Source of the DNA: Candidatus Omnitrophota bacterium
GTDB taxonomy: Bacteria > Omnitrophota > Gorgyraeia > Gygaellales > Profunditerraquicolaceae
Direction of reading: 5' to 3'
NCBI GenBank assembly: GCA_026387335.1
Contig: JAPLLX010000005.1
Span: 1 to 59,531 of the forward strand
Length of the DNA: 59,531 nucleotides
In this document: positions 2,460 through 40,734 of the stretch, one piece after another
Layout: the number at the start of each line of letters is the position of its first letter
Position numbering within the stretch: position 1 is the stretch's first letter
Position numbers and translations under genes: made by a program
Notes under the pieces: generated by a model
Seen by the model: only the letters and a program-made list of their open reading frames with translations
What the model was told of the DNA's origin: nothing
The model's database searches: none

Positions 2460-3500
2460 ATGTTTTTGAAAATAAAAAACCGGATCGAGCAGGAGTTATC
2501 CGCCTATATCCGCAGTATGGATAAAACCTACTCCTTAAGCAAACTATCCCCCCTCTTATTTAACAGCATAAAGGAATTTATATCGCGCGACGGTAAAAGA
2601 ATAAGACCTATTCTATTTTGTATAGGCTACCTGGGGTTTTCCGGAAAAGCTGCTCCGGGGCTCTACAGAAGCGCTCTGTCTTTAGAGCTCCTGCATGACT
2701 TTATGCTTGTCCATGACGATATAATTGACAGGTCTGATATGCGCCGGGGCAAGCCTTCAATGCACGCAAGGCTAAACAAATATTTTAAAAATACAACCGG
2801 GATTAAATTTAACGGCCAGGACCTGGCCATTGTCATTGGAGATGTAATGTACGCACTGGCCCTAGATGCCTTCCTGGCTGTAAAAGAAAAACCTGAACGC
2901 AAGGACCTGGCTCTAAAAAAACTGATCTCGGCGGCCCTCTACACCGGAAGCGGCGAATTTATAGAATTACTTTTGGGAGAGAAACCAATAGAAAAAATAA
3001 CCAAGAATGATATTTATAAGATATATGATTATAAAACCGCCAACTACACCTTTGCTTCTCCCCTGACTATGGGGGCGCTCCTGGCGGGGGCCAAGAAAGA
3101 CCAGATAAAGAAACTTTTTGATTATGGCATGTTCCTGGGTAGAGCCTTCCAGATCAAAGACGATATTATCGGGACATTCGGCGATAAATCCGAAATAGGA
3201 AAATCCAATCTTACGGATATTGGCGGCGCAAAGAGAACGCTTCTTATCTGGTATGCCTATAATCACTGCGCCAACATTGAGAGGTTGGCGATAAAAAAGG
3301 TTTTTTCCGCTAAAATGGTGGCGAAAAAAGAATTACTTAGGATCCGCCGGATATTATCTGATTCCGGCAGTTTAAATTATGCCAGGAAAGAGATAAAAAC
3401 GCTGCTTAACCAGGCCAATCGGGCTATAAAATCATTAAAGATGGTTAGGAAGAGCCGCGCGGCCCTGATTAACTTTTCGCAAGAAATACTTACCGTCTAA
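2460..3500 (+). CDS. Polyprenyl diphosphate synthase (trans-isoprenyl diphosphate synthase family)
   Basis: First Asp-rich motif LVHDDIIDRSDMRRG and second Asp-rich motif FQIKDDIIG. Product chain length cannot be inferred from the sequence. Confidence 0.85.
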   Translation: MFLKIKNRIEQELSAYIRSMDKTYSLSKLSPLLFNSIKEFISRDGKRIRPILFCIGYLGFSGKAAPGLYRSALSLELLHDFMLVHDDIIDRSDMRRGKPSMHARLNKYFKNTTGIKFNGQDLAIVIGDVMYALALDAFLAVKEKPERKDLALKKLISAALYTGSGEFIELLLGEKPIEKITKNDIYKIYDYKTANYTFASPLTMGALLAGAKKDQIKKLFDYGMFLGRAFQIKDDIIGTFGDKSEIGKSNLTDIGGAKRTLLIWYAYNHCANIERLAIKKVFSAKMVAKKELLRIRRILSDSGSLNYARKEIKTLLNQANRAIKSLKMVRKSRAALINFSQEILTV

Positions 3501-4342
3501 TGTCTATGCGCATAAATGTAGCTAAATCAGCGGGGTTTTGTCTCGGGGTGAAACGGGCGCTGGATATTGCCTTTAAAACCGCCGCCAGCGGTAAAAAAGT
3601 TTATATGCTCGGAGATATCGTGCACAACGAAAATGTGGTCCGGGAGATAGAGAAATCCGGGATTAAAAAAATCAGCAAACTAAAAAATACAAAATCCGGC
3701 ATTCTCCTGATCCGGGCCCATGGCGCTTCCTACGGCACATTTATCCAGGCAGCCAAATTAGGATTTACTATCATCGATGCCACCTGCCCTATGGTTAAAG
3801 AAATACATAGTATAGTCAAAGACATGCAAAACAAAGGCTATAAGATTATAGTTATAGGCGATAAAAACCACGAGGAAGTTCTGGGCATATCCGGGCAGCT
3901 GAGAGAAAAGGCTTTAGTTATAGACGGCTTAAACGGTATCCCTTTAGCAAAAATAAAGAAAATCCAGAAAGCCTGTGTTGTCCCGCAATCAACTCAAAAC
4001 GTAAAAAAGGTATTGGAGATTGTGGATGTGCTTAAAGCGCATATACCGGAATTAAAGTTTTTTAACACGATTTGTAAACCGACAAGGGCCAAGCAGGAAG
4101 AAATAATGCATATGCCTTTAGAGAATGACGTAATAATAGTTATCGGCTCTAAAAACAGCGCTAATACTAAAAGGCTTTATGAAATATCCCGCTCATTGAA
4201 CAAAAAAACCTGGTGGGTAAATTCAAAAGATGAAATAAAGCCCGGCTGGTTTAAAGACGTCAAGCGCCTGGGAATAACCGCAGGGGCATCCACTCCCGAA
4301 TACACCATTAACAATATAGTCAGGTATATTAAGAGCCTTTAA
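3500..4342 (+). CDS. ispH: 4-hydroxy-3-methylbut-2-enyl diphosphate reductase
   Basis: Three conserved Cys contexts of IspH/LytB (AGFCLGVKRA, ATCPMVKE, NTICKPT) and a C-terminal GITAGASTPE. The start overlaps the upstream stop codon. Confidence 0.9.
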   Translation: MSMRINVAKSAGFCLGVKRALDIAFKTAASGKKVYMLGDIVHNENVVREIEKSGIKKISKLKNTKSGILLIRAHGASYGTFIQAAKLGFTIIDATCPMVKEIHSIVKDMQNKGYKIIVIGDKNHEEVLGISGQLREKALVIDGLNGIPLAKIKKIQKACVVPQSTQNVKKVLEIVDVLKAHIPELKFFNTICKPTRAKQEEIMHMPLENDVIIVIGSKNSANTKRLYEISRSLNKKTWWVNSKDEIKPGWFKDVKRLGITAGASTPEYTINNIVRYIKSL

Positions 4343-4703
4343 TAATCTTCTCTGCTTCCCGCCAATCATCTGTTGAACTATTAGAAGGCTTGCCTTTTCT
4401 TTCCCAAATCTTCTTAGCCAATTCTTTTATCTTTGCCTCTGAGGCGATCCTGTTTTCTTCAGCCAGACGATTATACAACCAGGCTACGGCAAAACCCAAA
4501 ACCGAAGCATAAACAAAACCCCAGACCGCTCCGATTATACTGCCCATAATTGTAGGCGTATAACCGACATAAATCGTGGTCATCATCTTACCCCAGGAAC
4601 TTCCCCAGAAATACATCATATCCAGCAAGCCCAATAAGAAAGTGATGCCTCCCCAGACAAGGCCTAAGGCCATACCAAATGCCTTTATATCCAATCTAGC
4701 CAT
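4329..4703 (-). CDS. Small membrane protein with a C-terminal DUF2934-like tail
   Basis: Three predicted TM helices followed by a charged tail, KGKPSNSSTDDWREAEKII, that resembles DUF2934. AGGAGGAGG lies upstream of the ATG. Confidence 0.5.
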   Translation of the reverse strand: MARLDIKAFGMALGLVWGGITFLLGLLDMMYFWGSSWGKMMTTIYVGYTPTIMGSIIGAVWGFVYASVLGFAVAWLYNRLAEENRIASEAKIKELAKKIWERKGKPSNSSTDDWREAEKIIKGS

Positions 4704-4791
4704 ATCCCCCTCCTCCTTTTTCTTACGTCTTATATTTTATCACCCGAAATAAGGAAGTCAACTACTCTAAAAAAACAATGCAGCCGGACTT

Positions 4792-5739
4792 TTATTTTAG
4801 CTTTTCCGCAACCTCATAAAGTATCCCGCCGGCTATCTCGGGCTTAGGAAGAAAGTATTTTCTCGCGGATATAACTACCTGGATATTATTATCCGGCTTC
4901 TGAATAACCTTGAAGGTAATATCTGCTGAATCTACGGATGCGCTAATGTTACCGGCGGGTTTATCTTCCTTAATAACCTGGCCTTTTTGTTTCAAGAGAG
5001 CCAACCCTGCTTCATACGCCCTGTCAAAAGATACCGAGAAATCCTGCTCGGCGCTATCATTCCCGGCGAAAGTAAAAGCCAAACCCACGGGTAAAAAAGC
5101 GGTTCCGCTTAACATAGCTACGCTATATATTTTCGCTCCCTTTATCCCGGCTGCCTTCATAGGTTCCGCCAGTATAAACGCTCCCAACACCTGAGCGCTG
5201 GTTATGTTCTTGTAACTCCTATGTATATTTATCTCATACACTTTAACAACCGGTTCTTTCCCCGGACCATAATCCCGGGAAACAATCTTACCCATATCCA
5301 GCTTAAGCAGGTCAATCTGAAAAGGCATTTGCTTAGGAGGCTGGCCCTCCTGCTTCTTCTCTTGCTTCACTACCTTAAATGAATCTACGTTAAGCTTGCC
5401 ATCCTTGTTCTTTTCTAATCCCAGCTCTTTTAATTCGATTTCAATACTGGGAAAATGTAATTCTTTCTTAAGTAAAGCTTTAAGGTCATAAACAACGCCT
5501 ATCTTTGGTAAATCTACCAGGATGCCTCTGGAAAAACCCTTAGGGTTATACACTTTAAAACCGGTTATCTTAACGGATTGATTAAAAACCCCTAAAGAAA
5601 AACCATCCATATGGACCGGGGCTCCCGTAACCTGGCTTATTGTAATAGTCAACGCGGTTTTAATAATCTGGTCCCTGAGAACACCCAAAGCCAAAATGAC
5701 GATTATAATTATCGCTATCCAAATTAAAATCTTTTTCAT
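4792..5739 (-). CDS. Membrane-anchored protein, AsmA/DUF748-like N-terminal region
   Basis: N-terminal TM anchor followed by a pattern (ITGFKVYNPKGF...LPKIGVVYDLKALLKKELHFPSIEIE...KNKDGKLNV) that resembles AsmA-like proteins. The assignment is tentative. Confidence 0.45.
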   Translation of the reverse strand: MKKILIWIAIIIIVILALGVLRDQIIKTALTITISQVTGAPVHMDGFSLGVFNQSVKITGFKVYNPKGFSRGILVDLPKIGVVYDLKALLKKELHFPSIEIELKELGLEKNKDGKLNVDSFKVVKQEKKQEGQPPKQMPFQIDLLKLDMGKIVSRDYGPGKEPVVKVYEINIHRSYKNITSAQVLGAFILAEPMKAAGIKGAKIYSVAMLSGTAFLPVGLAFTFAGNDSAEQDFSVSFDRAYEAGLALLKQKGQVIKEDKPAGNISASVDSADITFKVIQKPDNNIQVVISARKYFLPKPEIAGGILYEVAEKLK

Positions 5740-5773
5740 GGCTCTTCCTCCTAGCTTGTATTATACTATAAAT

Positions 5774-7237
5774 ATGCAGAAAAAAATACAAATAGGCTTG
5801 TTAATATTCTGCCTGATCAGCCTGATATATTTTCTTTCGGCAAAAGGGAATATTGAAATATCCGATACTTATTTCTCCATCCAAACCGCAAAAGCAATTG
5901 TTTCAGACCATTCCCTGTCAGCGCAAGGTTGTCGCGGGGGATACTGTTATAAATCAAAACTGGACGGAAAATATTATTCTAAATTCGGCTTAGGGCTGGC
6001 CTTCATCTTTACCCCTTATGTCCTGCTAGCCAAAACTATTGCCGCTTTTACCGGCCTGCCGGAAGATCAACTCATTGATTTTCTCATATCTTTTTACAAT
6101 ATATTTTTCGGCGCCGGCGCCTGCGTAATAATGTTCTGCCTGATCCGGCTTTTCGGGAATTCTAACCGGACATCCCTGGTAATGGCCCTATTATTGGGGC
6201 TGGGAACTTTCTGCTGGCGTTACAGCGCCTGGGATTTCTCCGAAACAGCGCAAATGTTTTTTCTCCTCCTGGCTATTTATCTTCTGCTTAAAAATAACCT
6301 TAAGGATGCGGGTTTAGGGGCATTCTCTTTTTCCTGCCTGCTTTTATTAAAAGCCCAATACATGATCTACCTGCCTCTTTTTCTTTTATATATCTTGATG
6401 CAAAACAGGCGCGATACAAAATTACTTCTTAAGCGCGCGGGTATATTTATTTTTATCAGCCTTTTGGGCTTTGGCTTTATTCTTTTCCTGAATTATATAA
6501 GATTCGGTGAATTTTTGGAATTCGGATACGGTAAGGAAACAGGTCATTTTTATTTTTCGGGGATCAAAGAACACGCGGTGAGGCTGCTCTACTGGCTGGA
6601 TAAGGGAGTATTCATTTATAATCCCTTATTTATTCTGGGGATCCTGGGTTATTTTAAATTTTTTAAAGCCTTCCGGAAAGAAGCGCTCTTCTTCCTCTCT
6701 ATTATCAGCCTTAATTTCATTTTAACTTGCATGTGGCATGGTTGGCACGGAGCAAGCTCCTGGGGGCCTAGATACTTAGTGCCGGTAGCTGCGCTTTGGC
6801 TTATACCCTGCTACGTTTTCTTTTACAAAAAGGGCGCGGTTAAAGTAATATTAATAGCGCTTATTTTCTTATCCGTTTCTATTCAGGGCTTAAGTATCCT
6901 GCAGGGGAATCTTGAGTATCTTACGATTTGTAACGCTAACGAACAGGAAGGAATGCGTAAAGGTATGCCGGCCCAGATTGTCGGGTCGCTTATAGTATTA
7001 AAACATAAATTGGTTAAAAAAGATAGCTTATACAGCCTTTCTGAATTCGGGATAAATTCAGACTCAAAAGTAGATACTTCTGTCTTTCCTTGTTATAAGG
7101 GGTTTGATCTGTGGTATCTAAACGCAGGCCGGCTTCTTAATAAACCGGTACTAAAATTTACGCCTATATTATTTGCGCCTTTAATAATCATCTGTTTTAT
7201 TCGTCTATTAAAAATTACCCGGACGCCGACTACTTAG
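5774..7237 (+). CDS. Polytopic membrane protein, GT-C (ArnT/PMT-like) glycosyltransferase-like
   Basis: More than 10 predicted TM helices. I moved the start to the ATG at 5774 (MQKKIQIGLL), because the track start at 5696 lies antisense inside the neighbouring gene. Confidence 0.5.
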   Translation: MQKKIQIGLLIFCLISLIYFLSAKGNIEISDTYFSIQTAKAIVSDHSLSAQGCRGGYCYKSKLDGKYYSKFGLGLAFIFTPYVLLAKTIAAFTGLPEDQLIDFLISFYNIFFGAGACVIMFCLIRLFGNSNRTSLVMALLLGLGTFCWRYSAWDFSETAQMFFLLLAIYLLLKNNLKDAGLGAFSFSCLLLLKAQYMIYLPLFLLYILMQNRRDTKLLLKRAGIFIFISLLGFGFILFLNYIRFGEFLEFGYGKETGHFYFSGIKEHAVRLLYWLDKGVFIYNPLFILGILGYFKFFKAFRKEALFFLSIISLNFILTCMWHGWHGASSWGPRYLVPVAALWLIPCYVFFYKKGAVKVILIALIFLSVSIQGLSILQGNLEYLTICNANEQEGMRKGMPAQIVGSLIVLKHKLVKKDSLYSLSEFGINSDSKVDTSVFPCYKGFDLWYLNAGRLLNKPVLKFTPILFAPLIIICFIRLLKITRTPTT

Positions 7238-28891: not shown

Positions 28892-28959
28892 TTTTGACCC
28901 TTTTCCCCCTCCAAATAAACCAAGACTTTAGCTGCAAATCAAAAAAAGCGGAAAATAAT

Positions 28960-29044
28960 CGGAGAGGGAGGGATTTGAACCCTCGAACCCTTGCGGATTA
29001 CGTGTTCTCCAGACACGCGCGCTCGACCACTACGCGACCTCTCC
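28960..29044 (-). tRNA. tRNA-Ser (anticodon GGA)
   Basis: Acceptor GGAGAGG/CCTCTCC, anticodon loop CTGGAGA, long variable arm, T arm with TTCAAAT loop. Confidence 0.85.
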
Positions 29045-29055
29045 AAAATTTAATA

Positions 29056-29098
29056 CTTGAGTGCCGTAAACTTTTCCCTTGTCGGGAAAAGTTTACGG
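29056..29098 (-). repeat. Conserved tRNA-Ser trailer element (copy after Ser-CGA)
   Basis: Perfect 15-bp hairpin 29064-29098 (CCGTAAACTTTTCCC / GGGAAAAGTTTACGG, loop TTGTC on the plus strand), followed on the minus strand by CACTCAAG. Confidence 0.6.
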
Positions 29099-29182
29099 AG
29101 AGTGGAGGATTTGAACCTCCGGTCGCCTTACGACGACAACGGTTTTCGAGACCGCCGCATTCGACCACTCTGCCAACTCTCC
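29096..29182 (-). tRNA. tRNA-Ser (anticodon CGA)
   Basis: Acceptor GGAGAGT/ACTCTCC, anticodon loop CTCGAAA, long variable arm, T arm GGAGG-TTCAAAT-CCTCC. Confidence 0.9.
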
Positions 29183-29202
29183 AACAATTTATTAGACAAC
29201 CT

Positions 29203-29257
29203 GCACTCCGCTCGCTTGAGTGCCGTAAAATTTTCCCTTGTCGGGAAAATTTTACGG
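29203..29257 (-). repeat. Conserved tRNA-Ser trailer element (copy after Ser-TGA)
   Basis: Perfect 15-bp hairpin 29223-29257. It differs from the Ser-CGA copy by one compensated base pair. It is followed by CACTCAAG and a second stem, GCACTC-AAGCGAGCG-GAGTGC. Confidence 0.6.
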
Positions 29258-29341
29258 AGGAGGAAGGATTCGAACCCTCGGAGACCTTACGGCCTCAACG
29301 GTTTTCAAGACCGCCGCATTCGACCGCTCTGCCACTCCTCC
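29255..29341 (-). tRNA. tRNA-Ser (anticodon TGA)
   Basis: Acceptor GGAGGAG/CTCCTCC, anticodon loop CTTGAAA, long variable arm, T arm GAGGG-TTCGAAT-CCTTC. Confidence 0.9.
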
Positions 29342-29347
29342 ATTAGA

Positions 29348-31318: not shown

Positions 31319-32767
31319 TTACCCCTTAATCACTCCCAGCGGTCGCATCCTGCAGACGCGCTTGGCCAGGCCCGTATTATGCACTACGCTAACCACATCA
31401 TTAACATTTTTATAGGCTTGAGGCGCTTCTTCCACAATCGTGCCTCTTCCTGAAGCTTTGACTATTATACCTTGAGATTCCAATTCTTTCAATAAAGTAT
31501 CTAGATTAATAGAGCGGGCGGCGGCAGTGCGCGATTTAAGCCGGCCCGCTCCATGACAACAAGAAAAGAAAGTTTCTTTTGCCCCATCTTGACCGACCAA
31601 TAGATAGGAGTTCCTTCCCATATCGCCCGGGATGATTACGGGTTGACCCAATTTTTTATACCTTTCAGGAAGCTCCGGATGCCCCGCAGGTAAAGAACGG
31701 GTTGCGCCTTTTCTATGCACGCATAAAGTTTTTTCTTGGCCATCCACAATATGCTTTTCGATTTTCGCGATATTATGCGCCACGTCATAAATTAAAAACA
31801 TCCCCAGTTTCTGCCAGGCAAGATTAAATATTTTTTCAAAGGTAAGCCGGGTCAAATGCATCAGGCACTGCCGGTTGGCCCAGGCGTAATTAGCCGCGCA
31901 TTTCATTGCTCCCAGATAGGCTTTTCCCTCGTCAGATTTAAGCGGAGCGCTGGCGAGCTGGCGGTCAGGAACATTGATATTGTATTTTTGCAGGCAGGAC
32001 ATCATACTGCGCGTATAATCTTCGCAGACCTGATACCCAAACCCGCGCGAGCCGGAATGAATCATAATAGTAACCTGGCCTAAATCAAGATTAAGCGCAT
32101 CGCAGGCATTCCGGTCATAGAGTTGGTCAATTACCTGAACCTCCAGAAAATGATTCCCGCTGCCCAGCGTCCCTGACTGGGCTTTACCCCTTTCGTAAGC
32201 GCGCTCAGAAACAGCCTCAGGATCTGCCCCCGGCATCGCGCCGTTTTCTTCGGTGCAATCCAGGTCATCCTGAGTGCCGTAACCTTTTTCCACCGCCCAT
32301 TGCGCGCCCTTAATCAAAATTTCCTGCTCTTCTTTGGCGCTCACCCGGATATCGCCTTTAGAGCCCACACCCGAAGGAATATCCGAAAATAAAGCGTAGG
32401 TCAAATCCTTTAATTTATCTTTTACATCTTCATATTGTAAATTTGTTTTGAGCATCCGCACGCCGCAGTTGATGTCAAACCCGACACCTCCCGGTGATAT
32501 TACTCCCCCATTTTCAGGATCAGTCGCCGCCACTCCTCCTATCGGAAAACCGTAACCCCAATGGATATCCGGCATAGCCAATGAAGCATTAACAATTCCC
32601 GGCAGGAAAGCGACATTCGCCACCTGTTCCAAGGCTTTATCCTGACGGATATCCTTTAATAATTTCTCGTCGCAATAAATAATCCCGGGAACGCGCATCC
32701 CGGGTTTATAAGCTTTCGGTATCCTCCAGCGGAAATCATCAATCTTTTCTAAATTAATATCAGACAT
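31319..32767 (-). CDS. rtcB: RNA-splicing ligase RtcB
   Basis: RtcB signatures GGVGFDINCGVR, GSGNHFLE, IHSGSRGFG, CCHGAGR. Confidence 0.95.
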   Translation of the reverse strand: MSDINLEKIDDFRWRIPKAYKPGMRVPGIIYCDEKLLKDIRQDKALEQVANVAFLPGIVNASLAMPDIHWGYGFPIGGVAATDPENGGVISPGGVGFDINCGVRMLKTNLQYEDVKDKLKDLTYALFSDIPSGVGSKGDIRVSAKEEQEILIKGAQWAVEKGYGTQDDLDCTEENGAMPGADPEAVSERAYERGKAQSGTLGSGNHFLEVQVIDQLYDRNACDALNLDLGQVTIMIHSGSRGFGYQVCEDYTRSMMSCLQKYNINVPDRQLASAPLKSDEGKAYLGAMKCAANYAWANRQCLMHLTRLTFEKIFNLAWQKLGMFLIYDVAHNIAKIEKHIVDGQEKTLCVHRKGATRSLPAGHPELPERYKKLGQPVIIPGDMGRNSYLLVGQDGAKETFFSCCHGAGRLKSRTAAARSINLDTLLKELESQGIIVKASGRGTIVEEAPQAYKNVNDVVSVVHNTGLAKRVCRMRPLGVIKG

Positions 32768-33182
32768 CCAGAATAACCTCGGCTAACCAACCGTAATCAT
32801 TTTGCTTAATTTTAAGTTCATGAAAAGTGGCGGCTTTAATCTCGGTATTTACCTTATAATTAGCTATGTCGCTTCCTACTACGAGCGCCTCAAGAGAATT
32901 TCCGGCTAATTTATTAATTTTAATACCGTGGAATATAAGGCCTTTAGCCGAAGATAAAGATAACAATTCGTTGAGCCAGTTAATAAATAACTCCTCCAAA
33001 TTATCCGCTTTTTGTTTGATAATTATGCTGGTGTGAATTTTGTTCCTAGTGAATTGCTTATGCGTGGAAATTGCAAATACGGCGAGTCCGGCGTTCCTGA
33101 ATAAATCTTTTAAGTCTTTTCCTTTTACCCGGATGCCGATATCCGCGGTATGCTCAAAAACTTCGTAAGGTTTGTCTTTCAC
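32760..33182 (-). CDS. Archease (RtcB activator)
   Basis: N-terminal YEVFEHTADIGIRVKG, a C-terminal KAATFHELKI, and a 140-aa length. Overlaps the rtcB start by 8 nt. Confidence 0.85.
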   Translation of the reverse strand: MKDKPYEVFEHTADIGIRVKGKDLKDLFRNAGLAVFAISTHKQFTRNKIHTSIIIKQKADNLEELFINWLNELLSLSSAKGLIFHGIKINKLAGNSLEALVVGSDIANYKVNTEIKAATFHELKIKQNDYGWLAEVILDV

Positions 33183-33245
33183 GCAGTTTTTAGTGTGCGA
33201 TGTGAACTGTTAACTGCTGGGAAGAAATATTGGTTTTAAATTTAA

Positions 33246-33318
33246 TGGGCCATGCAGGAGTCGAACCTGCGGCCTTGACATTAAGAGTGTCCTGCTCCGC
33301 CAATTGAGCTAATGGCCC
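33246..33318 (-). tRNA. tRNA-Lys (anticodon CTT), no encoded CCA
   Basis: Acceptor GGGCCAT/ATGGCCC, D arm GCTC..GAGC, anticodon loop CTCTTAA, T arm GCAGG-TTCGACT-CCTGC, discriminator A. Confidence 0.9.
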
Positions 33319-33733
33319 ATTACTAATAGTTACTCCTTCAATCCAACCAAGTATCTTATATAAAAGATTCTTATCGCAGACTTCAACTTTTATTGTCCCA
33401 TTATACAGGATATTTTTACGATAGCCAGTACCTTCTTTTTTAACATAGCTCTTGCCAAATCGCGAAACGGGCAGGCCTATTACATTCGACCAAAACTCTT
33501 TGCAGCCTGCCCCTATAATTTCCTTCCTTCAATAGTGTCTGCAGCCTATCCTTCTGTATCTCTGTTAACTCAATATCTTTACACCAGTCGCTTACTGTGC
33601 TTTTTGCAATTTTAAACGGCGCTATCTGCCTTAGTTCTTTATAACTCAAGCTCTGTTTTCTTAAATCTCTGACTAATTCTTTCTTCTCCCAGTTCTTCAT
33701 AGCTTGGGATCTCCACGCCTGCCTAATGAACAA
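33319..33733 (-). pseudogene. HTH-domain gene that appears frameshifted, with the downstream frame reading into tRNA-Lys
   Basis: The track ORF 33440-33733 encodes an HTH (SYKELRQIAPFKIAKSTVSDWCKD). A second frame continues RKEIIGAGCKEFWSNVIGLPVSRFGKSYVKKEGTGYRKNILYNGTIKVEVCDKNLLYKILGWIEG and has no stop before entering the tRNA. Confidence 0.3.
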
Positions 33734-33878
33734 ACAGATATGCTTTAAGCTAATAGCCTGAATTACTACTCACTTTTGAATTTGAGATATTTTAACTTAA
33801 AATGGGGTGCTTTGCAAGGCGGAATTTATTTATCTTTAGCTCAATTTGGGGTAAAAAATATACCCGTCACTTTTATTA

Positions 33879-34622
33879 CTATTTCTTTCTTGCCTGAATG
33901 ATTAAATGCCTGCCAAAAAGTAGCTCATTTGACAATAAGATTCTGTTTATCCTCCGGTAATCTACGCCGCCTTTTTTCATTGCCCGTCTTTCCTTCTGCC
34001 AGGACTGAAACTTAAGTAACGGTAATAATACAAAACTGAGAAATTTCAGCGATGGCTTCATCAAATCCGTATAAACACTTTCCGCAGAAAGCCCATTCTT
34101 AAATAAAAGATACTCTAATTCTTGATACCGCCAAACAACAATGTGCATATTTTGTAACCCGCTCGGGAATATTTTGCAGTAATCTAAAATTGGCTCGCGA
34201 AAAAAATCAAAGCCACCCTCGAATAAAAACCTAATCCGTGAACCCAGATTTAAAATATTTGGCGTAGATATAATTAAGGCGCCTCCCGGCTTTAATAGTC
34301 TGCTAATCTGCCCAATAACAAAATCTGGATTATATAAATGCTCTATAACTTCCAAAAATAGAATGTAATCAAAGCTGTTTTCTGGAAATGGCAGGGATCT
34401 TTCCAGATTACTTGCCTCAAATTTTATTAGATTACGGTATTTAAACCTCTCTATATCCATATCAGAAGCAACCACCTCAAACCCCGAATCTTTTAACCTT
34501 TTCGCGCAATTACCATCTCCACAGCCTAGATCCAACACCTTGCCTTTTGGAAGATTAGTAAATAACGCGGTAACCGCCTCAAGAAGATAGTTTTGTTTAT
34601 TTTCCCCCATATTCCCTTCCAT
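33879..34622 (-). CDS. Class I SAM-dependent methyltransferase (small-molecule/Methyltransf_11-like)
   Basis: Motif I VLDLGCGDG, an acidic motif II (VVASDMD), and motif-III-like LKPGGALIIST. No DPPY/NPPY-type DNA-methylase motif seen. Confidence 0.75.
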   Translation of the reverse strand: MEGNMGENKQNYLLEAVTALFTNLPKGKVLDLGCGDGNCAKRLKDSGFEVVASDMDIERFKYRNLIKFEASNLERSLPFPENSFDYILFLEVIEHLYNPDFVIGQISRLLKPGGALIISTPNILNLGSRIRFLFEGGFDFFREPILDYCKIFPSGLQNMHIVVWRYQELEYLLFKNGLSAESVYTDLMKPSLKFLSFVLLPLLKFQSWQKERRAMKKGGVDYRRINRILLSNELLFGRHLIIQARKK

Positions 34623-34695
34623 GTAACTGTGGTTGATTATACACCATCATATATGGGGGTGTCAAATATTAAAATATCGTGTAAGATTATAAAGT

Positions 34696-34911
34696 ATGAA
34701 TACTTTGGCTGGAATACAGTTGGGTAAAAGAATTAAAGAGTGGCGTAGGAAACGTGGGATTACGCAGGAACAACTAGCTGAGCTTATAGATACGAGCTAC
34801 AAATATATTCAAAGAATAGAAGGAAAAAATCCTCCAGATATACGATTAACTACTATCATAAGACTTGCCAAAGCGTTGAAGGTAAAGCCTGCCGAATTGT
34901 TGAAATTTTAA
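34696..34911 (+). CDS. XRE-family helix-turn-helix transcriptional regulator
   Basis: 71 aa, with LGKRIKEWRRKRGITQEQLAELIDTSYKYIQRIEG, the canonical Cro/C1-type HTH. Confidence 0.85.
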   Translation: MNTLAGIQLGKRIKEWRRKRGITQEQLAELIDTSYKYIQRIEGKNPPDIRLTTIIRLAKALKVKPAELLKF

Positions 34912-34948
34912 CTTAAGTCTTCTAATTTGTTCTTATGCCGATACTATT

Positions 34949-37900
34949 CTAACTTTCGTATTGAGGCAAGATTGGAGAAATGGGAATAGACTGAGCATTA
35001 CTACGACTCTCTTTATAATTCGTCAGCACATCACAGATACTACTTAGCTTGTTTTTATCACCTTCTATAAATTTAAGCAAAACTTTTTCCTCTAAATTCT
35101 CAATATCATTCATAGTACATATATTATTACTTAGGAGACGTAAATAATCGCCTCTTGTGAGCTTTTTGCCTAATCTCATTGCAATTTCGAGAATTTTTCC
35201 TGATACTCCTAATTCAAGACGAACTAAAAATCGAGACACTCTTTGATTCAAATCACTGCCAGGATATAAAATTTCTACAACCCTTGCAACTACGGGCAAA
35301 ATATCACAAGTTCTAGAAACGACGCTTCTGATTGGTCCTGCAGCACCGTCAAATTTTCCACCAAATTGCGTCAAAATATCCTCCATATCTATAAGGGGCT
35401 TATCCGTAATCCATAAAAGACAAGCCACAGCTTTTTTCGCTCTTAATGTTGACTGGCTTTCTTCTTTAATTGAATACCTTAATGAAGAGAGAACGCATTC
35501 TGGAACACCTTGATTTCGGATTTCACTCATCCAAGTTTGTGGTTCTTTTTGAGTACTCTTTTTATTAATTGGAAAATGTATATCATTAAGCTCAACAGAA
35601 ATTTGAGTAACGGCAATCAAAGTAGGATCGTTGATACTCTCTGGGTCAACGCTCTTAAATGTCCTAACGAAACGAATAATACTTTCTACCTCTACACCAG
35701 CTTCGCCTGACAATCTGCCTAATTGAGTAAGATGATATAATCCATTCTGATCAATTTTAATAAGATCATTTGCAACCAACCCATCCAAAGCACTTTTAAG
35801 AATTGCTTCATCCCAAACCCATCGTTGATCTATTTGTTTCCGTTGAAATACACCAAAGCTCTGTTCTAAGAATTCTATTATTTCTTGCGCTGGAAGACCT
35901 TGGCCTGATCGTTCTGCAGCTGTAAGAACACGCACTATAAGTGAACGTGGATCAGTATTTGAAGCTAGAAACTTTGAATTTAAATCTTCTGGTGAACCCA
36001 ATACATAATTTCTCCATACTTGATATTCCTCATTCCCATCTTGAGCTATCACATAAGAAGTACCTTTTTTAGTAAATCCAAGCCTACCTGCCCTACCAAT
36101 GATATTTTTGTATTCAGCAATAGAATAGGGCTTATTACCTGGATGCATCAAACCAGCGATAACCACTGCTTCGGCAGGTGTATTAACGCCCATCGCTAAG
36201 GTCGTAGTGGCGGAAATCACTTTCAATGCAGTAGGCGAAGCTCTAAATTGTTCTTCAATAAGCAACCTCTCTTCTGTATCCAAATCAGAAATATGGAAAG
36301 CTGTGCCTCCTGCTAGTGCATCTCTTAATCGTTGAGAAGAAAGAGAGGGATCTCCGTTAGGCAGCATATCTAATACTGATTGAGCCGGAGCTAGACCCAG
36401 CGTTTCAGCAAGATATAGGGCACAACCTCTAGCTTCTCCTCTTGTTTCCCTAAAAACAATCACACTCTTACCTTCGCTAACTAATTTCCTAACTAATGGA
36501 ATTATTAAATCTTGGCTTGATCCTTTACGGAATTCAGGGACTATGTGTCTTGTTATCACCGCTTCTTTACCATCTTCAGCAGATATAAATCTGAAACTAC
36601 CGTCTAACCTAAGCACTCCTTCATCTAGGGGGATTGGTCTTTCTGTTCTCTTAAGTAATCTAGCATTAAGCCAGCGTTCAAGACCATTTGTATCACCAAT
36701 AACAGCTGATAGGGCAATAAGCTGTGGTTCAATACCTTGTCTACGACGCATCTTTAAAAGCGTAAGAATGAACTCGAGATTTACTCCTCTAGATTCGTCT
36801 GCTATCATTTGAACTTCATCTATAACCACCGTTCCTACTTGTTCAAGAATATGTGGATTACCGAGAACTAAAGCTGAGAATTTTTCATATGTCATTAGAC
36901 AGATGTCATACTGTCCACGCATCAAAGGCAAGATATCGTCGCTTGTACTATCGCCAGTAGCTCTAATAGTTTTTATTCCAAAATCTTGGTATGCTAATGT
37001 AAAATGTCTGAATTTATCATTTACCAGAGCTTTTAAAGGAAAAAGAAATATTGCTCTCTTTCGCTCTAAAACATTCTTTAAGGCAGCAAGTTCACCTATC
37101 ATTGTTTTTCCTGAAGAAGTCGGCGCTGAAACAACTATATGTTCTCCATCAAGCAGATTAAACTCATTTATGGCATCTACCTGTAATTGATTAAGCGAAG
37201 GTATTAAACCAGCCCATACTTTTAACAACTCTTGTGGGAAACCGTAAACTGTCAAACTTTTAACATCAGTAGTAACTTTATGTTTTGTACGTTCGGGAAA
37301 AAGAGATTGATATAACGCCCCCGGTTTAAAAACTGGCCATGTTAAATCCCCATTGATAGTGCCGCGTAACGTTGGATGTTGCGGCTTCCCTAACTTTGAA
37401 GCATCGTCTATTACACGTTGCGTTACATATTCAAGAAGCCGATAAACTCCAATTTTTCCTGCTTTAGTAACTTCTTCAACGCCTTGTATTGCAGAAAGCA
37501 AGTGATATGTTAAGAGCCCGTGACCATATTTTTGATTTTCCCAAGCCTTCTCTGTTGCAAGAGACGCGGTAATAATCAACCTTCCTTCTCCCGATAACTG
37601 CTTGAGGAGCTCTTCTGTTGATCTTAGTTCTCTAGCGCTCATATCTACTTGAAGTGCCTTAGCACCCATACCACCAGAAAAACAACAATCCAAAATAAAA
37701 ATTAAACGGTTCGTACGAATACGAAATAACCATTCCGATAAAACATCTAACGGAATACAGGTTTCAGTTAAATTGCTCCTATCGGCATCATATGTAACTA
37801 GTTCGTGGGTTTCTGTGCCATGTCCAGAAAATGCAATCACAACAACATCATCATCGCTACATCCAGATAATTTATTAAATTCTAGTTCAATAGCTGCACG

Positions 37901-38056
37901 ACTAGCATCTTTATCTATAAGCAGTTTCGTGTTGTTTCCCAGGTTATCAGTAAAGAGACCATACAGAGCCTTGGCATCACACTTAGCACAATTTAGCCAA
38001 TTAATTGTAGGTGAAGCATATCTGTCTATACCGATAAAAAGTCCGTAGAATTTCAT
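34949..38056 (-). CDS. Fusion protein: N-terminal caspase-like peptidase C14 domain plus Ski2/Hel308-like SF2 (DExH) helicase with a winged-helix/ratchet-like C-terminal region
   Basis: Caspase part (about aa 1-240): GLFIGIDRY, AFSGHG (His79), ILDCCFSGG (Cys125), YGHGLLTYHLLSAIQG. Helicase part: Q-motif-like LNQLQVDAI, Walker A SAPTSSGKT (about aa 311-318), DEVQ (413-416), SAV, TTTLAMGVNTPA, GRAGR. The C-terminal roughly 330 aa are helical. Confidence 0.85.
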   Translation of the reverse strand: MKFYGLFIGIDRYASPTINWLNCAKCDAKALYGLFTDNLGNNTKLLIDKDASRAAIELEFNKLSGCSDDDVVVIAFSGHGTETHELVTYDADRSNLTETCIPLDVLSEWLFRIRTNRLIFILDCCFSGGMGAKALQVDMSARELRSTEELLKQLSGEGRLIITASLATEKAWENQKYGHGLLTYHLLSAIQGVEEVTKAGKIGVYRLLEYVTQRVIDDASKLGKPQHPTLRGTINGDLTWPVFKPGALYQSLFPERTKHKVTTDVKSLTVYGFPQELLKVWAGLIPSLNQLQVDAINEFNLLDGEHIVVSAPTSSGKTMIGELAALKNVLERKRAIFLFPLKALVNDKFRHFTLAYQDFGIKTIRATGDSTSDDILPLMRGQYDICLMTYEKFSALVLGNPHILEQVGTVVIDEVQMIADESRGVNLEFILTLLKMRRRQGIEPQLIALSAVIGDTNGLERWLNARLLKRTERPIPLDEGVLRLDGSFRFISAEDGKEAVITRHIVPEFRKGSSQDLIIPLVRKLVSEGKSVIVFRETRGEARGCALYLAETLGLAPAQSVLDMLPNGDPSLSSQRLRDALAGGTAFHISDLDTEERLLIEEQFRASPTALKVISATTTLAMGVNTPAEAVVIAGLMHPGNKPYSIAEYKNIIGRAGRLGFTKKGTSYVIAQDGNEEYQVWRNYVLGSPEDLNSKFLASNTDPRSLIVRVLTAAERSGQGLPAQEIIEFLEQSFGVFQRKQIDQRWVWDEAILKSALDGLVANDLIKIDQNGLYHLTQLGRLSGEAGVEVESIIRFVRTFKSVDPESINDPTLIAVTQISVELNDIHFPINKKSTQKEPQTWMSEIRNQGVPECVLSSLRYSIKEESQSTLRAKKAVACLLWITDKPLIDMEDILTQFGGKFDGAAGPIRSVVSRTCDILPVVARVVEILYPGSDLNQRVSRFLVRLELGVSGKILEIAMRLGKKLTRGDYLRLLSNNICTMNDIENLEEKVLLKFIEGDKNKLSSICDVLTNYKESRSNAQSIPISPILPQYES

Positions 38057-38134
38057 TTTTCTTAGTGTTTATGTATGAATTTTACCTCAGGTATCTGTCT
38101 GTAGCAAAGATTCCTCATAGTTCTCCTCAATCTT

Positions 38135-39016
38135 TTAAATAAATACGCCTTTATCATCAAAAGGTGTATAAACTCCCCCTGTAAAATTACCATAATTCAA
38201 ACCAAATTTAATTTCGATGCCTAAAAGAACATAGGCAATCGCTAGAGTGGTTCGGGGATCAAGTGTTATCCCATTTTTCTCAGTATGCGATGCTCCGCTA
38301 ACTTCTATTATCTCCACTTTGCTTTTATAAAAATCTGGATCTAACCCTTCTTTATTGTATTTTGCGCTTCTCATGACCGCCAAATCTATTGTTCCTGCAA
38401 AGCAATACAATTTCTTAACCCTATTTAGAAGTTTTTCTCTTGTTCCTATCTCATTTATATACTTGATTGGGAATTGGTCAGGATCTAAGTTTACACATTG
38501 CATCATATGATGCAGTTCACCTTTTTTGAGTTTAGGAAGAAGATCTGCTAACTCTCTACCTTCATGAGGAGTAGCAACAGTGATTAGACTATTAACTTTT
38601 AAAAGTGGGCTGACATCATCAATTACGGCTGCAACTGCGTCTAAACCACCCATGCTGTGTCCAACTAAATCAAAATCTTGACTTTCCTCTATTTTACTCA
38701 AAATTTTGTTTTTAAGAATGACCCCAAAATCGAGGAAACTCTTGCATCTTTTAGATTCATCATCGCTAAAAGTTACGTATTCCACTAAATCGCAATTCTT
38801 GAATATTCCTGAAAACCACTCTTTTATAGAAATACCGAATTTCTTATTACTAACTGTCCACCATGTATTATCCTCATCAGTCCAACCAGGAACAAAAAAA
38901 ACTGGCCTCTTAAGAGTTAATTTTTGCAGTGAGAATTGACTCAGCTTACTTAGTGCATTCTCTTTCTGTTTCTTCCTCTCCTCTATCATATCTTGGACTA
39001 CACCAGTAGTAGGCAT
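38135..39016 (-). CDS. Alpha/beta-hydrolase, lipase/esterase-like (PGAP1/DUF676-like)
   Basis: PVFFVPGW oxyanion-region pattern, nucleophile elbow GHSMGG (Ser121), and a downstream TVATPHEG motif. AAAGGAGGAATATT lies before the ATG. Confidence 0.7.
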   Translation of the reverse strand: MPTTGVVQDMIEERKKQKENALSKLSQFSLQKLTLKRPVFFVPGWTDEDNTWWTVSNKKFGISIKEWFSGIFKNCDLVEYVTFSDDESKRCKSFLDFGVILKNKILSKIEESQDFDLVGHSMGGLDAVAAVIDDVSPLLKVNSLITVATPHEGRELADLLPKLKKGELHHMMQCVNLDPDQFPIKYINEIGTREKLLNRVKKLYCFAGTIDLAVMRSAKYNKEGLDPDFYKSKVEIIEVSGASHTEKNGITLDPRTTLAIAYVLLGIEIKFGLNYGNFTGGVYTPFDDKGVFI

Positions 39017-39039
39017 AATATTCCTCCTTTTTTACATAC

Positions 39040-39071
39040 AAAAAACCCTCGCCTTTTGAGCGAAGGTTTTA
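39040..39071 (-). terminator. Rho-independent terminator after the 215-aa gene
   Basis: On the minus strand, stem ACCUUCGC/GCGAGGGU (with one G-U pair) is followed by UUUUUUG. A-run and T-run flank both sides, so it could act in both directions. Confidence 0.55.
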
Positions 39072-39144
39072 ATTATTTTAAAGTGGCGGATTTACCCCTT
39101 CAAACTGCACCACTTGTTAAATTTATCAAATTCATTCTAAAAAT

Positions 39145-39792
39145 TTACGTAAAAGTTGCTCCTTCGTCTCCTAAGCATACTTGATGACTCATATCCCATA
39201 ATAAATATCTAATAGCAAAATAATTATACGAGGATGGCCCCTCAATGACTAAGTTACCGATATTCTTTTTAAATAGATCTTTCGACCTATTATTCGCATC
39301 CCCTGTTGTATGGCCTTTTAATAAAGCAATTGGAATATGATTTGAGGGTTCTAAAAATAATTCTGCAGTTTTATCTTCAAGTGGTCTTCTTATATTTGTT
39401 GAGTTAGAAGCTACTATAAACTCTTCTTTATATCCTAGATAAGCAAGAGCACCTTGTGTTATGCAATTTTGTCCCAACTTCTTTGCAGAATTACAAGAAC
39501 GAGCATAAATAATCTTACCTTTTATGGCTTTGTTATCATCCTCCTTTAAAATAACTTCATTATCATGGCCATGAACAGAAATATCACTACCGTGCCCATT
39601 TAAGATAACTAACTTCGCACCCGTTTTTTCCAAAATCCCGATAACTCTGTTCCTATTCGCCTTTTCACGGTGGAGGTCTATAACTTTTACATTCTTCTTT
39701 TGTGCTATATCTATTATTTGCTCACTCCATTTAGAAAGATAATGAGTTGCTTCATCGTGTTCTGGTCTTGTAATGAGTAACACTCCTACCAT
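39145..39792 (-). CDS. Small protein with a caspase/CHAT-like His-Cys pattern (tentative)
   Basis: A beta-strand followed by GHG (LVILNGHGSD, His67), a second hydrophobic strand ending in Cys (KIIYARSCNS, Cys100), then GALAYLGY. This is the order seen in caspase-hemoglobinase-fold proteases. The call rests on pattern only. Confidence 0.4.
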   Translation of the reverse strand: MVGVLLITRPEHDEATHYLSKWSEQIIDIAQKKNVKVIDLHREKANRNRVIGILEKTGAKLVILNGHGSDISVHGHDNEVILKEDDNKAIKGKIIYARSCNSAKKLGQNCITQGALAYLGYKEEFIVASNSTNIRRPLEDKTAELFLEPSNHIPIALLKGHTTGDANNRSKDLFKKNIGNLVIEGPSSYNYFAIRYLLWDMSHQVCLGDEGATFT

Positions 39793-39797
39793 ATAGC

Positions 39798-40049
39798 TTA
39801 ATTTTGGTTTAGCTGTTCTAGTAAAACACCTTCTTTTAAAGCTCTCAAGAAAGACAGCTCTATGTCAACAATTTTCTGACCGACTTCGTCTCCTTGTTTT
39901 ACGCATTCAATAAGCTGCTCTCTGGTAAATTCGCCTACTGAACCGATATGAATTCTTACATGAGAAGGAAGAACATCAAGTCGCTCAATAACAAGATCTT
40001 TTAGCTCTTCTGAGATTTCTTTTTTTTGTTGCCCTGCTTCTTCTGTCAT
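39798..40049 (-). CDS. Small acidic hypothetical protein (83 aa)
   Basis: ORF abutting the upstream 69-aa ORF (the stop of one is adjacent to the start of the other) and ending 5 nt before the 215-aa gene starts. Confidence 0.5.
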   Translation of the reverse strand: MTEEAGQQKKEISEELKDLVIERLDVLPSHVRIHIGSVGEFTREQLIECVKQGDEVGQKIVDIELSFLRALKEGVLLEQLNQN

Positions 40050-40259
40050 TTAAATTATGCCTAATCCTTTTAATTTTTCCAGAATTTGTTCGCACCTTGC
40101 TGTATTGTTTTTTACCTCAAAATAAACAACTTCCCATGTAATAGGTTGTTTTTTCCCTTCTTCTTCTAAAACAAGTACAATTTCTTTACGCGTGTTTAGC
40201 GGAAGATTCGCATAAGCTTTTAGAAACTGCTCTCTATTATTATTTTCTGGATTACACAT
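40050..40259 (-). CDS. Small hypothetical protein (69 aa), weakly similar to the 83-aa neighbour
   Basis: First gene of the minus-strand cluster. Shares a loose L-P ... R..I ... T.E ... VK pattern with the next ORF. Confidence 0.45.
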   Translation of the reverse strand: MCNPENNNREQFLKAYANLPLNTRKEIVLVLEEEGKKQPITWEVVYFEVKNNTARCEQILEKLKGLGII

Positions 40260-40696
40260 AAATTAATAGAAATAAAACAAAGGTAGGTACCTATATCCTA
40301 AAAATCTGCCTATATACATAAAGGTAAGATTAAATTTCCTCAGTGATATCCGTAATTAACCCAATTGAATTACCCTTAGGTTAATTATACTAGATAATAA
40401 GGCAATGTCAAATAAATTGTGAGCTAGGAGTTAATCAGTTAAGAATGCGTTATTTTAATAAAACAGAACTATTCCCTAAATATTGCCCTTTTCTAGTACT
40501 AGAATTATTTTAGTAGCGAAACTTGAGCTACCTCTCTTTGTATCTCTGAACCCTGTAAATGTCCAAAAAGTGTCCATTTGATATTAAAAATCATTAAAAT
40601 TACTTAAAATACTTTAAAACAAAAAATTCTTTAACTTATTGAAGGAGTTCATAGTTACAATAAAATCAACGGCTTACAGGAATTATTCCGGACGGT

Positions 40697-40734
40697 TTAA
40701 GAGTGTCCTGCTCTGCCAATTGAGCTAATGGCCC
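40697..40734 (-). repeat. Orphan 5' half of tRNA-Lys(CTT) (acceptor 5' strand through the anticodon loop)
   Basis: 37/38 identity to 33281-33318. Similarity stops exactly after the anticodon loop. There is no 3' half next to it. Confidence 0.85.

Follow-up and report, generated by a model that had tools for sequence, protein, structure and literature searches.

The window analysed here is a 59,531-nucleotide stretch of the Candidatus Omnitrophota contig JAPLLX010000005.1 (assembly GCA_026387335.1, positions 1 to 59,531). On its minus strand, between positions 34949 and 38056, lies a single gene whose product combines, in one covalent chain, an intact protease of caspase fold and a complete helicase of Hel308 type. 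We favour, with moderate confidence, the reading that this caspase-Hel308 protein is a self-contained, mobile immune sensor-effector, in which DNA sensing would license the caspase and so arrest infection.

A first-pass annotation, prepared by a model from the letters and a list of open reading frames (ORFs), had described one protein with peptidase C14 landmarks followed by the superfamily 2 (SF2) helicase motifs in order. This description was borne out. Positions 34949-38056 form one uninterrupted ORF of 1,035 codons on the minus strand; a plus-strand reading was ruled out, as that frame is riddled with stops. Each motif that had been named occurs once in the protein, at the residue number reported for it: GIDRY (9-13), SGHG (77-80, with His79), ILDCCFSGG (121-129, with Cys125) and HGLLTYHLL (179-187) on the caspase side; SAPTSSGKT (310-318), DEVQ (413-416), SAV (450-452), TTTLAMGVNTPA (617-628) and GRAGR (654-658) on the helicase side. 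Such a full set is far beyond chance. The gene is laid out as follows (aa, amino acids; dN/dS, ratio of nonsynonymous to synonymous substitution rates; pLDDT, predicted local distance difference test; TM, template modelling score).

34949-38056, minus strand: caspase-Hel308 fusion gene, 1,035 aa; start ATG 38054-38056, stop TAG 34949-34951; Pfam and NCBIfam matches.
37337-38056, minus strand: caspase (peptidase C14) domain, aa 1-240; Pfam C14, fold matches, conservation and dN/dS.
37820-37822 and 37682-37684, minus strand: catalytic codons His79 and Cys125, within the caspase domain.
37976-37978 and 37688-37690, minus strand: acidic residue codons Asp27 and Asp123, within the caspase domain.
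aa 128-144, minus strand: variable low-confidence loop after the catalytic Cys, pLDDT <50.
37202-37336, minus strand: linker and helicase N-terminal lead-in, aa 241-285; helicase-only relatives align from about aa 260-270.
35987-37201, minus strand: SF2 motor, RecA1 and RecA2, aa 286-690; Pfam DEAD and Helicase_C, motifs and dN/dS.
Within the motor: motifs Q (Gln292), I (SAPTSSGKT, Lys317), II (DEVQ), III (SAV), V (TTTLAMGVNTPA) and VI (GRAGR).
34997-35986, minus strand: Hel308-type accessory domains, aa 691-1020 (winged helix, helical ratchet, helix-hairpin-helix-like domain 5); NCBIfam alignment, Foldseek TM and secondary structure of the model.
34952-34996, minus strand: disordered C-terminal tail, aa 1021-1035.

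The whole protein was modelled with AlphaFold2 on 67 homologues (mean pLDDT 85.4, predicted TM score (pTM) 0.70), and aa 1-262 were modelled separately (pTM 0.84). As the first-pass annotation had proposed for the N-terminal 240 aa or so, the first domain is a C14 caspase with His79 and Cys125. Pfam Peptidase_C14 (PF00656) matched aa 6-233 with an E value of 3.9e-13 and 50.1 bits against a cutoff of 21.4, covering positions 5-227 of the 233 in the profile. When the aa 1-262 model was searched against the PDB, all of the top 50 matches were caspase-fold proteins (E down to 2.6e-10), among them MALT1 paracaspase, Geobacter GSU0716, Arabidopsis metacaspase 4, caspases 3, 6, 7, 8 and 9, and legumain. 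The histidine and cysteine stand in their usual contexts at the canonical strand ends (SGH79G and DCC125FSG). The specific NCBIfam model for EACC1-associated caspases (NF047832) scored 77.1 bits, below its cutoff of 140.

Among 61 caspase-bearing sequences (60 representatives plus the query), His79, Cys125, Asp27, Gly180 and Gln226 are invariant; a domain lacking the dyad in homologues, which the first-pass annotation had reckoned with, was thus not found, and neither was a fold other than that of caspases. Residue 123 is Asp in 60 of the 61 and Glu in the remaining one. We take Asp123, two residues before Cys125, and Asp27, at the start of helix 1, to be putative counterparts of the acidic S1 residues of MALT1 and the metacaspases. 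Because of these positions, cleavage after a basic P1 residue appears likely, and the two acidic residues indicate that the caspase probably cuts after Arg or Lys.

The sole long stretch of low confidence in the model (aa 128-144) lies just past Cys125, where the intersubunit linker of caspases is found. A family-wide autoprocessing site in this loop was rejected: K133 and R142 are kept only in close relatives, and across the family the loop varies in length and sequence, with R142 absent or gapped in many clades.

The helicase half gave equally clear matches. Pfam DEAD covered aa 291-453 (E 1.6e-25) and Helicase_C aa 588-660 (E 1.2e-7), so that, with Peptidase_C14, three of the profiles suggested as a check in the first-pass annotation were matched. 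The NCBIfam models for archaeal Hel308-type helicases aligned over aa 285-1015, nearly their whole length of 700-740 residues, with an E value of 3e-82 and 277 bits. This score is far below the equivalog cutoffs of 887-1216, and by this measure the helicase half is a distinct bacterial clade and not an orthologue of archaeal Hel308. In the PDB, the best matches of the whole model were Hel308/Hjm structures (9b15, 2zj8, 2va8, 2p6r), followed by the PolQ helicase-like domain and Brr2. Foldseek TM scores to archaeal Hel308/Hjm, normalised to the full-length targets, were 0.85-0.89 over about 750 aligned columns, implying a full complement of Hel308 domains, five in number: the paired RecA lobes, the winged helix, the helical ratchet and a helix-hairpin-helix-like domain. 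In the Pfam scan, Helicase_dom4_arc had no match in the caspase-Hel308 protein, though it was found in sister helicases.

A phmmer search against all PDB chains ranked Hjm first (3e-54), then other Hel308 (1e-44 to 1e-47), ASCC3 (2e-38), PolQ (1e-36) and Brr2 (about 1e-33), with HamB (1e-21), Ski2 (1e-21), Mtr4 (about 1e-19), YprA (4e-7) and Lhr (4e-4) lower down. PADLOC profiles for HamB, PDC-M23B, SngC and BrxH matched the motor core only, at no more than 115 bits (HamB best, at 115). On these comparisons the helicase is assigned as a bacterial member of the Hel308/PolQ branch, and not as an orthologue of HamB, Lhr or Ski2. The assignment to a Hel308/Ski2/Lhr-type helicase made initially therefore stands as to a Ski2-like SF2 enzyme of complete Hel308 type, while Lhr and Ski2 themselves fall away on the phmmer ranking. 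In 79 of 79 sequences (the query and 78 representatives), Lys317, Asp413, Glu414, Arg655 and Arg658 are invariant; residue 416 is Gln or His.

A protein database search returned 1,727 relatives at E ≤ 1e-10. The best 120 of these are 58-100% identical to the query and mostly about 1,030 aa long (range 943-1,075), and precomputed Pfam annotation places C14, DEAD and Helicase_C together in 118 of the 120 best clusters. Those that have a name at all are called only "DEAD/DEAH box helicase" or "superfamily II helicase"; the caspase-Hel308 fusion is thus a large family without a name of its own, and not the well-annotated, named family that it might have proved to be when first noticed. Scanned exhaustively with HMMER, 1.84 billion cluster representatives yielded 1,249 matches at E ≤ 1e-30; among the listed representatives of at least 900 aa, at least 60 clusters (at 50% identity) carry the caspase, their identity to the query falling to about 31%. 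Relative to the 84-86% identical homologues, pairwise dN/dS was 0.07-0.10 in the caspase, 0.05-0.06 in the motor and 0.11-0.13 in the C-terminal domains, which indicates that both halves are under purifying selection, so that both enzymes are evidently being maintained. Full-text literature searches brought up no account of a caspase-Hel308 fusion apart from a 2012 census, where helicase domains were counted in 12 of 671 bacterial metacaspases (PMC3501461). Literature searches retrieved no report of phage protection by an expressed family member.

Members of the family occur in more than 12 phyla, in a patchy pattern. With each species represented by one genome, a scan yielded 35 loci, in Elusimicrobiota, several phyla of the candidate phyla radiation, Clostridia, Rickettsiales, Ignavibacteria, Chloroflexota, Sericytochromatia, Acidobacteriota, Alphaproteobacteria, Bacteroidota (Chryseobacterium, Sphingobacterium, Pedobacter, Niastella), Actinomycetota (Amycolatopsis, Lentzea, Nocardia) and others; a Myxococcota locus (Sorangium) came from a separate protein look-up. 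Identity across phyla is 48-74%, and this, with the patchy pattern, fits horizontal transfer. Full-length copies occur on 17 plasmids, from Bosea, Rhodopseudomonas, Rhizobium, Chondrinema, Ralstonia (a megaplasmid), Bradyrhizobium, Hymenobacter, Streptomyces rimosus, Acaryochloris and Agrobacterium. A phage origin was rejected: none of 50,697 phage records held a full-length copy, and 2.9 million IMG/VR viral contigs held one, adjoining a serine recombinase. All-versus-all clustering of the neighbouring ORFs at the 35 loci found no partner common to the family and none present in more than 8 loci; the only recurrent neighbours were tyrosine integrases (8 loci) and serine recombinases (6 loci). 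The gene, in short, moves between phyla on islands and plasmids, without an obligatory partner gene.

In the Omnitrophota window itself, the gene lies in an accessory island flanked by direct repeats.

33319-40696, no strand assigned: accessory island with the caspase-Hel308 gene; 7.4 kb, absent from the sister genome, low in guanine plus cytosine (GC).
33281-33318, minus strand: direct repeat copy 1, the 5' half of an intact tRNA-Lys(CTT) gene (33245-33319).
40697-40734, minus strand: direct repeat copy 2, at the opposite end of the island beside the PIG-L gene; orphan 5' half of tRNA-Lys.
34696-34911, plus strand: XRE-type helix-turn-helix regulator, 71 aa, convergent with the caspase-Hel308 gene; island cargo.
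38135-39016, minus strand: alpha/beta hydrolase (PGAP1/DUF676-like), 293 aa, 78 nt upstream on the same strand.

The GC fraction of the island is 0.363, against 0.424 for the remainder of the window, and the two 38-nt repeats that bracket it are identical at 37 of 38 positions. The seryl-tRNA synthetase (SerRS) of the contig assigns it to Candidatus Omnitrophota, with named matches at 84-89% identity. In a sister Omnitrophota genome, whose SerRS is 96% identical, the genes for PIG-L deacetylase, tRNA-Lys(CTT), archease, RtcB and SerRS are contiguous; in the window a 7.4-kb insertion splits PIG-L from tRNA-Lys, and the sister genome is without it. The orphan repeat copy corresponds to the 5' half of the tRNA and not to the usual 3' end, and none of the ORFs identified in the island is an integrase. 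The order within the island is: ORFs of 69, 83 and 215 aa, the hydrolase, the caspase-helicase, the XRE regulator, an S-adenosylmethionine (SAM) methyltransferase and a 97-aa ORF. The 71-aa XRE protein is a candidate for a possible regulatory role. The 293-aa hydrolase adjoins a caspase-Hel308 gene only in this strain's contigs, and was rejected as a conserved partner for that reason.

A homologue 86% identical, from another metagenome (L042), occupies the same tRNA-Lys/archease site with other cargo, and one 84% identical adjoins a MjaI-type restriction-modification pair; with cargo differing in this way, the tRNA-Lys/archease site behaves as a variable hotspot. The L042 cargo (3462-6635) comprises a PIN_12 protein, the start of which overlaps the stop of the helicase, and a GGDEF protein of 417 aa that weakly resembles the Cas10 palm; the pair may be another defence module.

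Defence genes recur beside the homologues elsewhere. At L007 the stop codon of a type III restriction enzyme overlaps the caspase-helicase start. At other loci the neighbours include a helicase resembling MkoC of Mokosh (L012), a HamB-like helicase preceded by a small gene (L014), an enzyme like MmeI (L016), and a HEPN-nucleotidyltransferase with an Eco57I-type methylase (L009). On plasmids of Bosea and Rhodopseudomonas, TIR+TIR+caspase operons lie beside the homologues (L046 11177-15891, L047 4167-6059). Further neighbours are KAP NTPase, TatD and TIR genes in Ralstonia; AbiEii and a PD-(D/E)XK nuclease in S. rimosus; NB-ARC and TIR proteins in Acaryochloris; and Tn3, a PLD-family protein and Fic/VbhA in Hymenobacter. 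Taken qualitatively, this list is consistent with a defence role by guilt by association. In three actinomycete genera (L027-L029), a gene for an Mrr-type PD-(D/E)xK nuclease ends 16-22 nt before the caspase-helicase start, which suggests a lineage-specific operon of the two.

L027, 7380-7979: Mrr-type nuclease gene.
L028, 7400-7969: Mrr-type nuclease gene.
L029, 7280-7978: Mrr-type nuclease gene.

The domains attached to the helicase are exchanged within the wider family. In P0132 the helicase is 51% identical to that of the query, but an unrelated 240-aa N-terminal domain replaces the caspase; aa 1-240 of this protein had no match in Pfam, PDB or PADLOC. By eye, its motifs GIDIKDFS, GGDGF, HTGP and GPGINMTARL recall class III nucleotidyl cyclases, with no profile match. 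About 15 representative clusters (30-37% identity) have no N-terminal domain and carry instead a C-terminal extension of about 175 aa.

P0217, P0223, P0229 and about 12 other representatives: extension-bearing sister helicases.

The extension follows the pattern E...QxxGExD...K...GRPxF and gave borderline matches to type II restriction endonucleases (HincII, E 0.008; PADLOC REase_II, E 0.009), a weak likeness at the sequence level. P0209 has both the caspase and the C-terminal extension. The C-terminal module is a GHKL ATPase in P0262 and a AAA+ module of sigma54 type in P0263. Immune proteins typically pair a constant sensor with output domains that can be swapped. We tentatively raise the broader idea that Hel308-like helicases of bacteria may make up a large class, so far unrecognised, of sensors that detect nucleic acid with one protein, differ from Hachiman and have interchangeable outputs. 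In the caspase version DNA would switch on an Arg/Lys-specific caspase, giving bacteria a parallel, within one protein, to the path that leads from nucleic-acid sensor to caspase in animals; this wider proposal we hold to be possible though doubtful.

How the favoured immune sensor-effector might work can be sketched. The Hel308 module would load on DNA structures arising from phage or plasmid replication or from DNA damage, presumably 3'-tailed or forked by analogy with Hel308, PolQ and HamB. DNA binding and ATP turnover would alter the conformation of the protein, its oligomeric state, or both, and the N-terminal caspase domains could thereby be released or dimerised. The activated caspase would then cleave after Arg or Lys, as in the type IV Thoeris effector, and cleavage of host proteins, phage proteins or both would halt infection, possibly at the cost of the cell (abortive infection). 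The nucleic-acid-triggered proteolysis on which this scheme turns gains indirect support from the mobile-island and defence context, the want of a fixed partner, the domain swapping and the precedent of trypsin-HamAB. In trypsin-HamAB/HamMAB, DNA and ATP hydrolysis by HamB activate a fused trypsin-like protease, aided by oligomerisation (PMC12799240; bioRxiv 10.1101/2025.09.03.673762).

Several points weigh against the immune sensor-effector reading. The defence role is deduced from gene association, and the substrate, the trigger and the mode of activation are postulated. Classically, the helicases of the Hel308 family serve repair and the restart of forks. The alignments do not support a conserved autoprocessing site, given the variation of the loop after Cys125, and the S1 role of Asp27 and Asp123 is a putative one, assigned by homology with positions in MALT1 and the metacaspases. 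Finally, no recognised defence system flanks the gene in the window, where its neighbours are the hydrolase, the XRE regulator, the SAM methyltransferase and small ORFs.

The other systems with caspase-fold immune effectors differ in how these are controlled. In type IV Thoeris the caspase-like effector is Arg-specific and promiscuous (PMC13434031). Both type IV Thoeris and the Canu (CanABC) caspase-nuclease system resemble caspase-Hel308 in using caspase-fold proteases as immune effectors, but there the caspases are switched on by a TIR-made small molecule or work with partner proteins, whereas no TIR, CanB or CanC partner is linked to caspase-Hel308 and its presumed activator is the fused helicase. 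Profile scans of the window neighbours found no gene for a TIR-domain partner, and the TIR genes near the two plasmid homologues sit in separate TIR+caspase operons. These operons, on the two conjugative alphaproteobacterial plasmids L046 and L047, resemble type IV Thoeris. MALT1, the metacaspases and GSU0716 are the best structural matches of the N-terminal domain, at 15-18% identity; compared with MALT1 and the metacaspases, the fusion caspase has no death, Ig or p10-type additions, and it is joined to a helicase. On the helicase side, archaeal Hel308/Hjm, the PolQ helicase-like domain and HelQ share the five-domain architecture, the fold and all SF2 motifs, although they are only 22-24% identical to the fusion helicase. 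Unlike Hel308, the fusion is bacterial, mobile and patchy, has DEVQ in motif II, and bears a 240-aa N-terminal caspase found on no Hel308.

Four other explanations were weighed. The first keeps the mechanism and changes the enemy: the protein would be a competition factor of plasmids and islands, directed against single-stranded DNA that enters by conjugation or transformation. Any match at E ≤ 1e-20 occurred in 63 plasmid records, 40 of them typed as conjugative (only 17 of the 63 carrying a full-length copy); among the plasmids with full-length copies that were examined, those of Bosea, Rhodopseudomonas, Bradyrhizobium and Acaryochloris are conjugative, and phage genomes hardly ever contain the gene. 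Enzymes of Hel308 type load on single-stranded 3' tails, which would suit such a target. The present data do not separate this explanation from anti-phage defence, however, and many anti-phage systems are plasmid-borne as well; we regard it as rather unlikely.

A second explanation, which we find improbable, makes the protein a DNA-repair enzyme, a Hel308-type fork or gap helicase with its own protease for clearing stalled complexes or crosslinks between DNA and protein, on lines similar to those of eukaryotic SPRTN with a helicase. Its helicase half indeed has Hel308/Hjm and PolQ, both repair helicases, as closest matches; the removal of crosslinks would presumably be well served by a protease held on a DNA translocase, and RadC-like genes lie nearby in two loci. 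Against this, the distribution is patchy and clearly horizontal, the gene being present or absent between sister genomes and carried on plasmids and integrase-bearing islands; its neighbours are defence genes and not repair operons, and the clustering of neighbours at the 35 loci revealed no conserved synteny with repair genes.

Nor do we give much credence to the proposal that the caspase acts only in cis, through a self-cleavage that would free or activate the helicase or a fragment, or that it serves as a non-killing regulatory module. Many caspase-family enzymes autoprocess, and the disordered loop of aa 128-144 comes directly after the catalytic Cys, at the intersubunit linker position, with K133 and R142 conserved in close relatives; but in the wider family the loop varies and R142 is often lost, no conserved basic residue is evident in the caspase-helicase linker, and the precedents among bacterial caspase-like effectors act in trans.

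Very improbable, lastly, is a divergent Hachiman with the caspase in place of the HamA nuclease: PADLOC HamB profiles do match the helicase core, the Mrr-type nuclease gene upstream in the three actinomycete loci gives a two-gene layout recalling HamA-HamB, and protease-bearing Hachiman variants exist, but the Hel308 models far outscore HamB (277 bits over aa 285-1015 against 115 bits, core only; PDB Hjm 3e-54 against HamB 1e-21), the fold matches all five Hel308 domains, DUF1837/HamA was found neither among the eight window neighbours nor as a conserved neighbour in the 35 loci, and the published protease variants have trypsin on HamA and not a caspase on the helicase.

Read as kinship, the HamB analogy of the first-pass annotation consequently does not hold, the likeness being confined to the core, weaker than that to Hel308 and without a HamA/DUF1837 partner. 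By sequence criteria caspase-Hel308 is not Hachiman; the functional analogy stands. Hachiman (HamA nuclease and HamB helicase) and its protease variants follow a like logic, a DNA-sensing SF2 helicase joined to a dangerous effector. They comprise two or three genes, whereas caspase-Hel308 is one polypeptide; in trypsin-HamAB a trypsin is carried on HamA, and here a caspase is carried on the helicase; and beside caspase-Hel308 there is neither HamA nor a gene for a metallo-beta-lactamase (MBL) pro-nuclease substrate. Helicase sensors, caspase-type effectors and helicase-gated proteases are each known singly; what is new is a caspase fused to a Hel308-type helicase in one gene, set in a wider Hel308-like clade whose outputs can be swapped.

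Some further neighbours of the homologues were recorded. A protein of about 385-400 aa adjoins the gene in four distant loci (Sorangium, Clostridia, Pyrinomonadaceae and Acidobacteriota); its conserved stretches include WQPCLFGRIAAK, GDGRWWHDHRIPGGMAFS and YHTDYTLPSEYF, and family scans with it gave nothing. The PIN_12 protein beside the 86% homologue was considered as a relative and rejected as unrelated.

L005, 6776-7987: protein of about 390 aa.
L008, 11198-12370: protein of about 390 aa.
L024, 11139-12296: protein of about 390 aa.
L037, 11195-12368: protein of about 390 aa.

On the plasmids L046 (6388-6993) and L047 (6390-6995), a 201-aa protein abuts or overlaps the caspase-helicase start and is 70% identical between the two. 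Family scans gave nothing for it either, and it is unrelated to the actinomycete Mrr nuclease, a kinship that was therefore rejected. In a Chryseobacterium metagenome-assembled genome (L010 6033-7517), a separate 494-aa caspase-domain protein with SGHG and DACYSGG is encoded some 290 nt downstream of the caspase-helicase. In Elusimicrobiota, the 70% identical homologue is followed just downstream by a reverse transcriptase of group II intron type (RVT_1 and GIIM; L001 4313-5599, L002 4202-5488).

Other features of the window concern the flank of the island. The RtcB RNA ligase (482 aa) and archease pair at 31319-33182 directly adjoins it; the best NCBIfam model for this RtcB is an 'intein-containing' variant, which covers only the C-terminal ligase part and scores far below cutoff. 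At 28959-29342, three tRNA-Ser genes stand right beside the gene for seryl-tRNA synthetase. In the sister genome (L054 11973-13312), a 335-aa ORF with a faint LAGLIDADG_3 match lies between two tRNA-Ser genes; the window is without this ORF, and the alignment gap at 29054-29254 marks a second insertion polymorphism.

If the immune sensor-effector reading is true, caspase-Hel308 would be the simplest known link from nucleic-acid sensing to a caspase, made by one gene with no adaptor, second messenger or pro-enzyme partner. A Hel308-based sensor chassis would join the bacterial immune helicases (HamB, DruE, Lhr-like and others), and the emerging view of caspase-family proteases as ancient immune effectors would be widened. 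If repair proves to be its task instead, the protein would be one of the rare bacterial cases of a protease that is coupled to a helicase and works on proteins bound to DNA. Members of this common family are found in strains that can be cultured, of Sphingobacterium, Chryseobacterium, Pedobacter, Nocardia, Sorangium, Ralstonia, Bradyrhizobium, Streptomyces rimosus and Acaryochloris, so that these ideas are directly testable, and, if the immune reading holds, the protein would offer a tractable system for learning how a helicase gates a protease.

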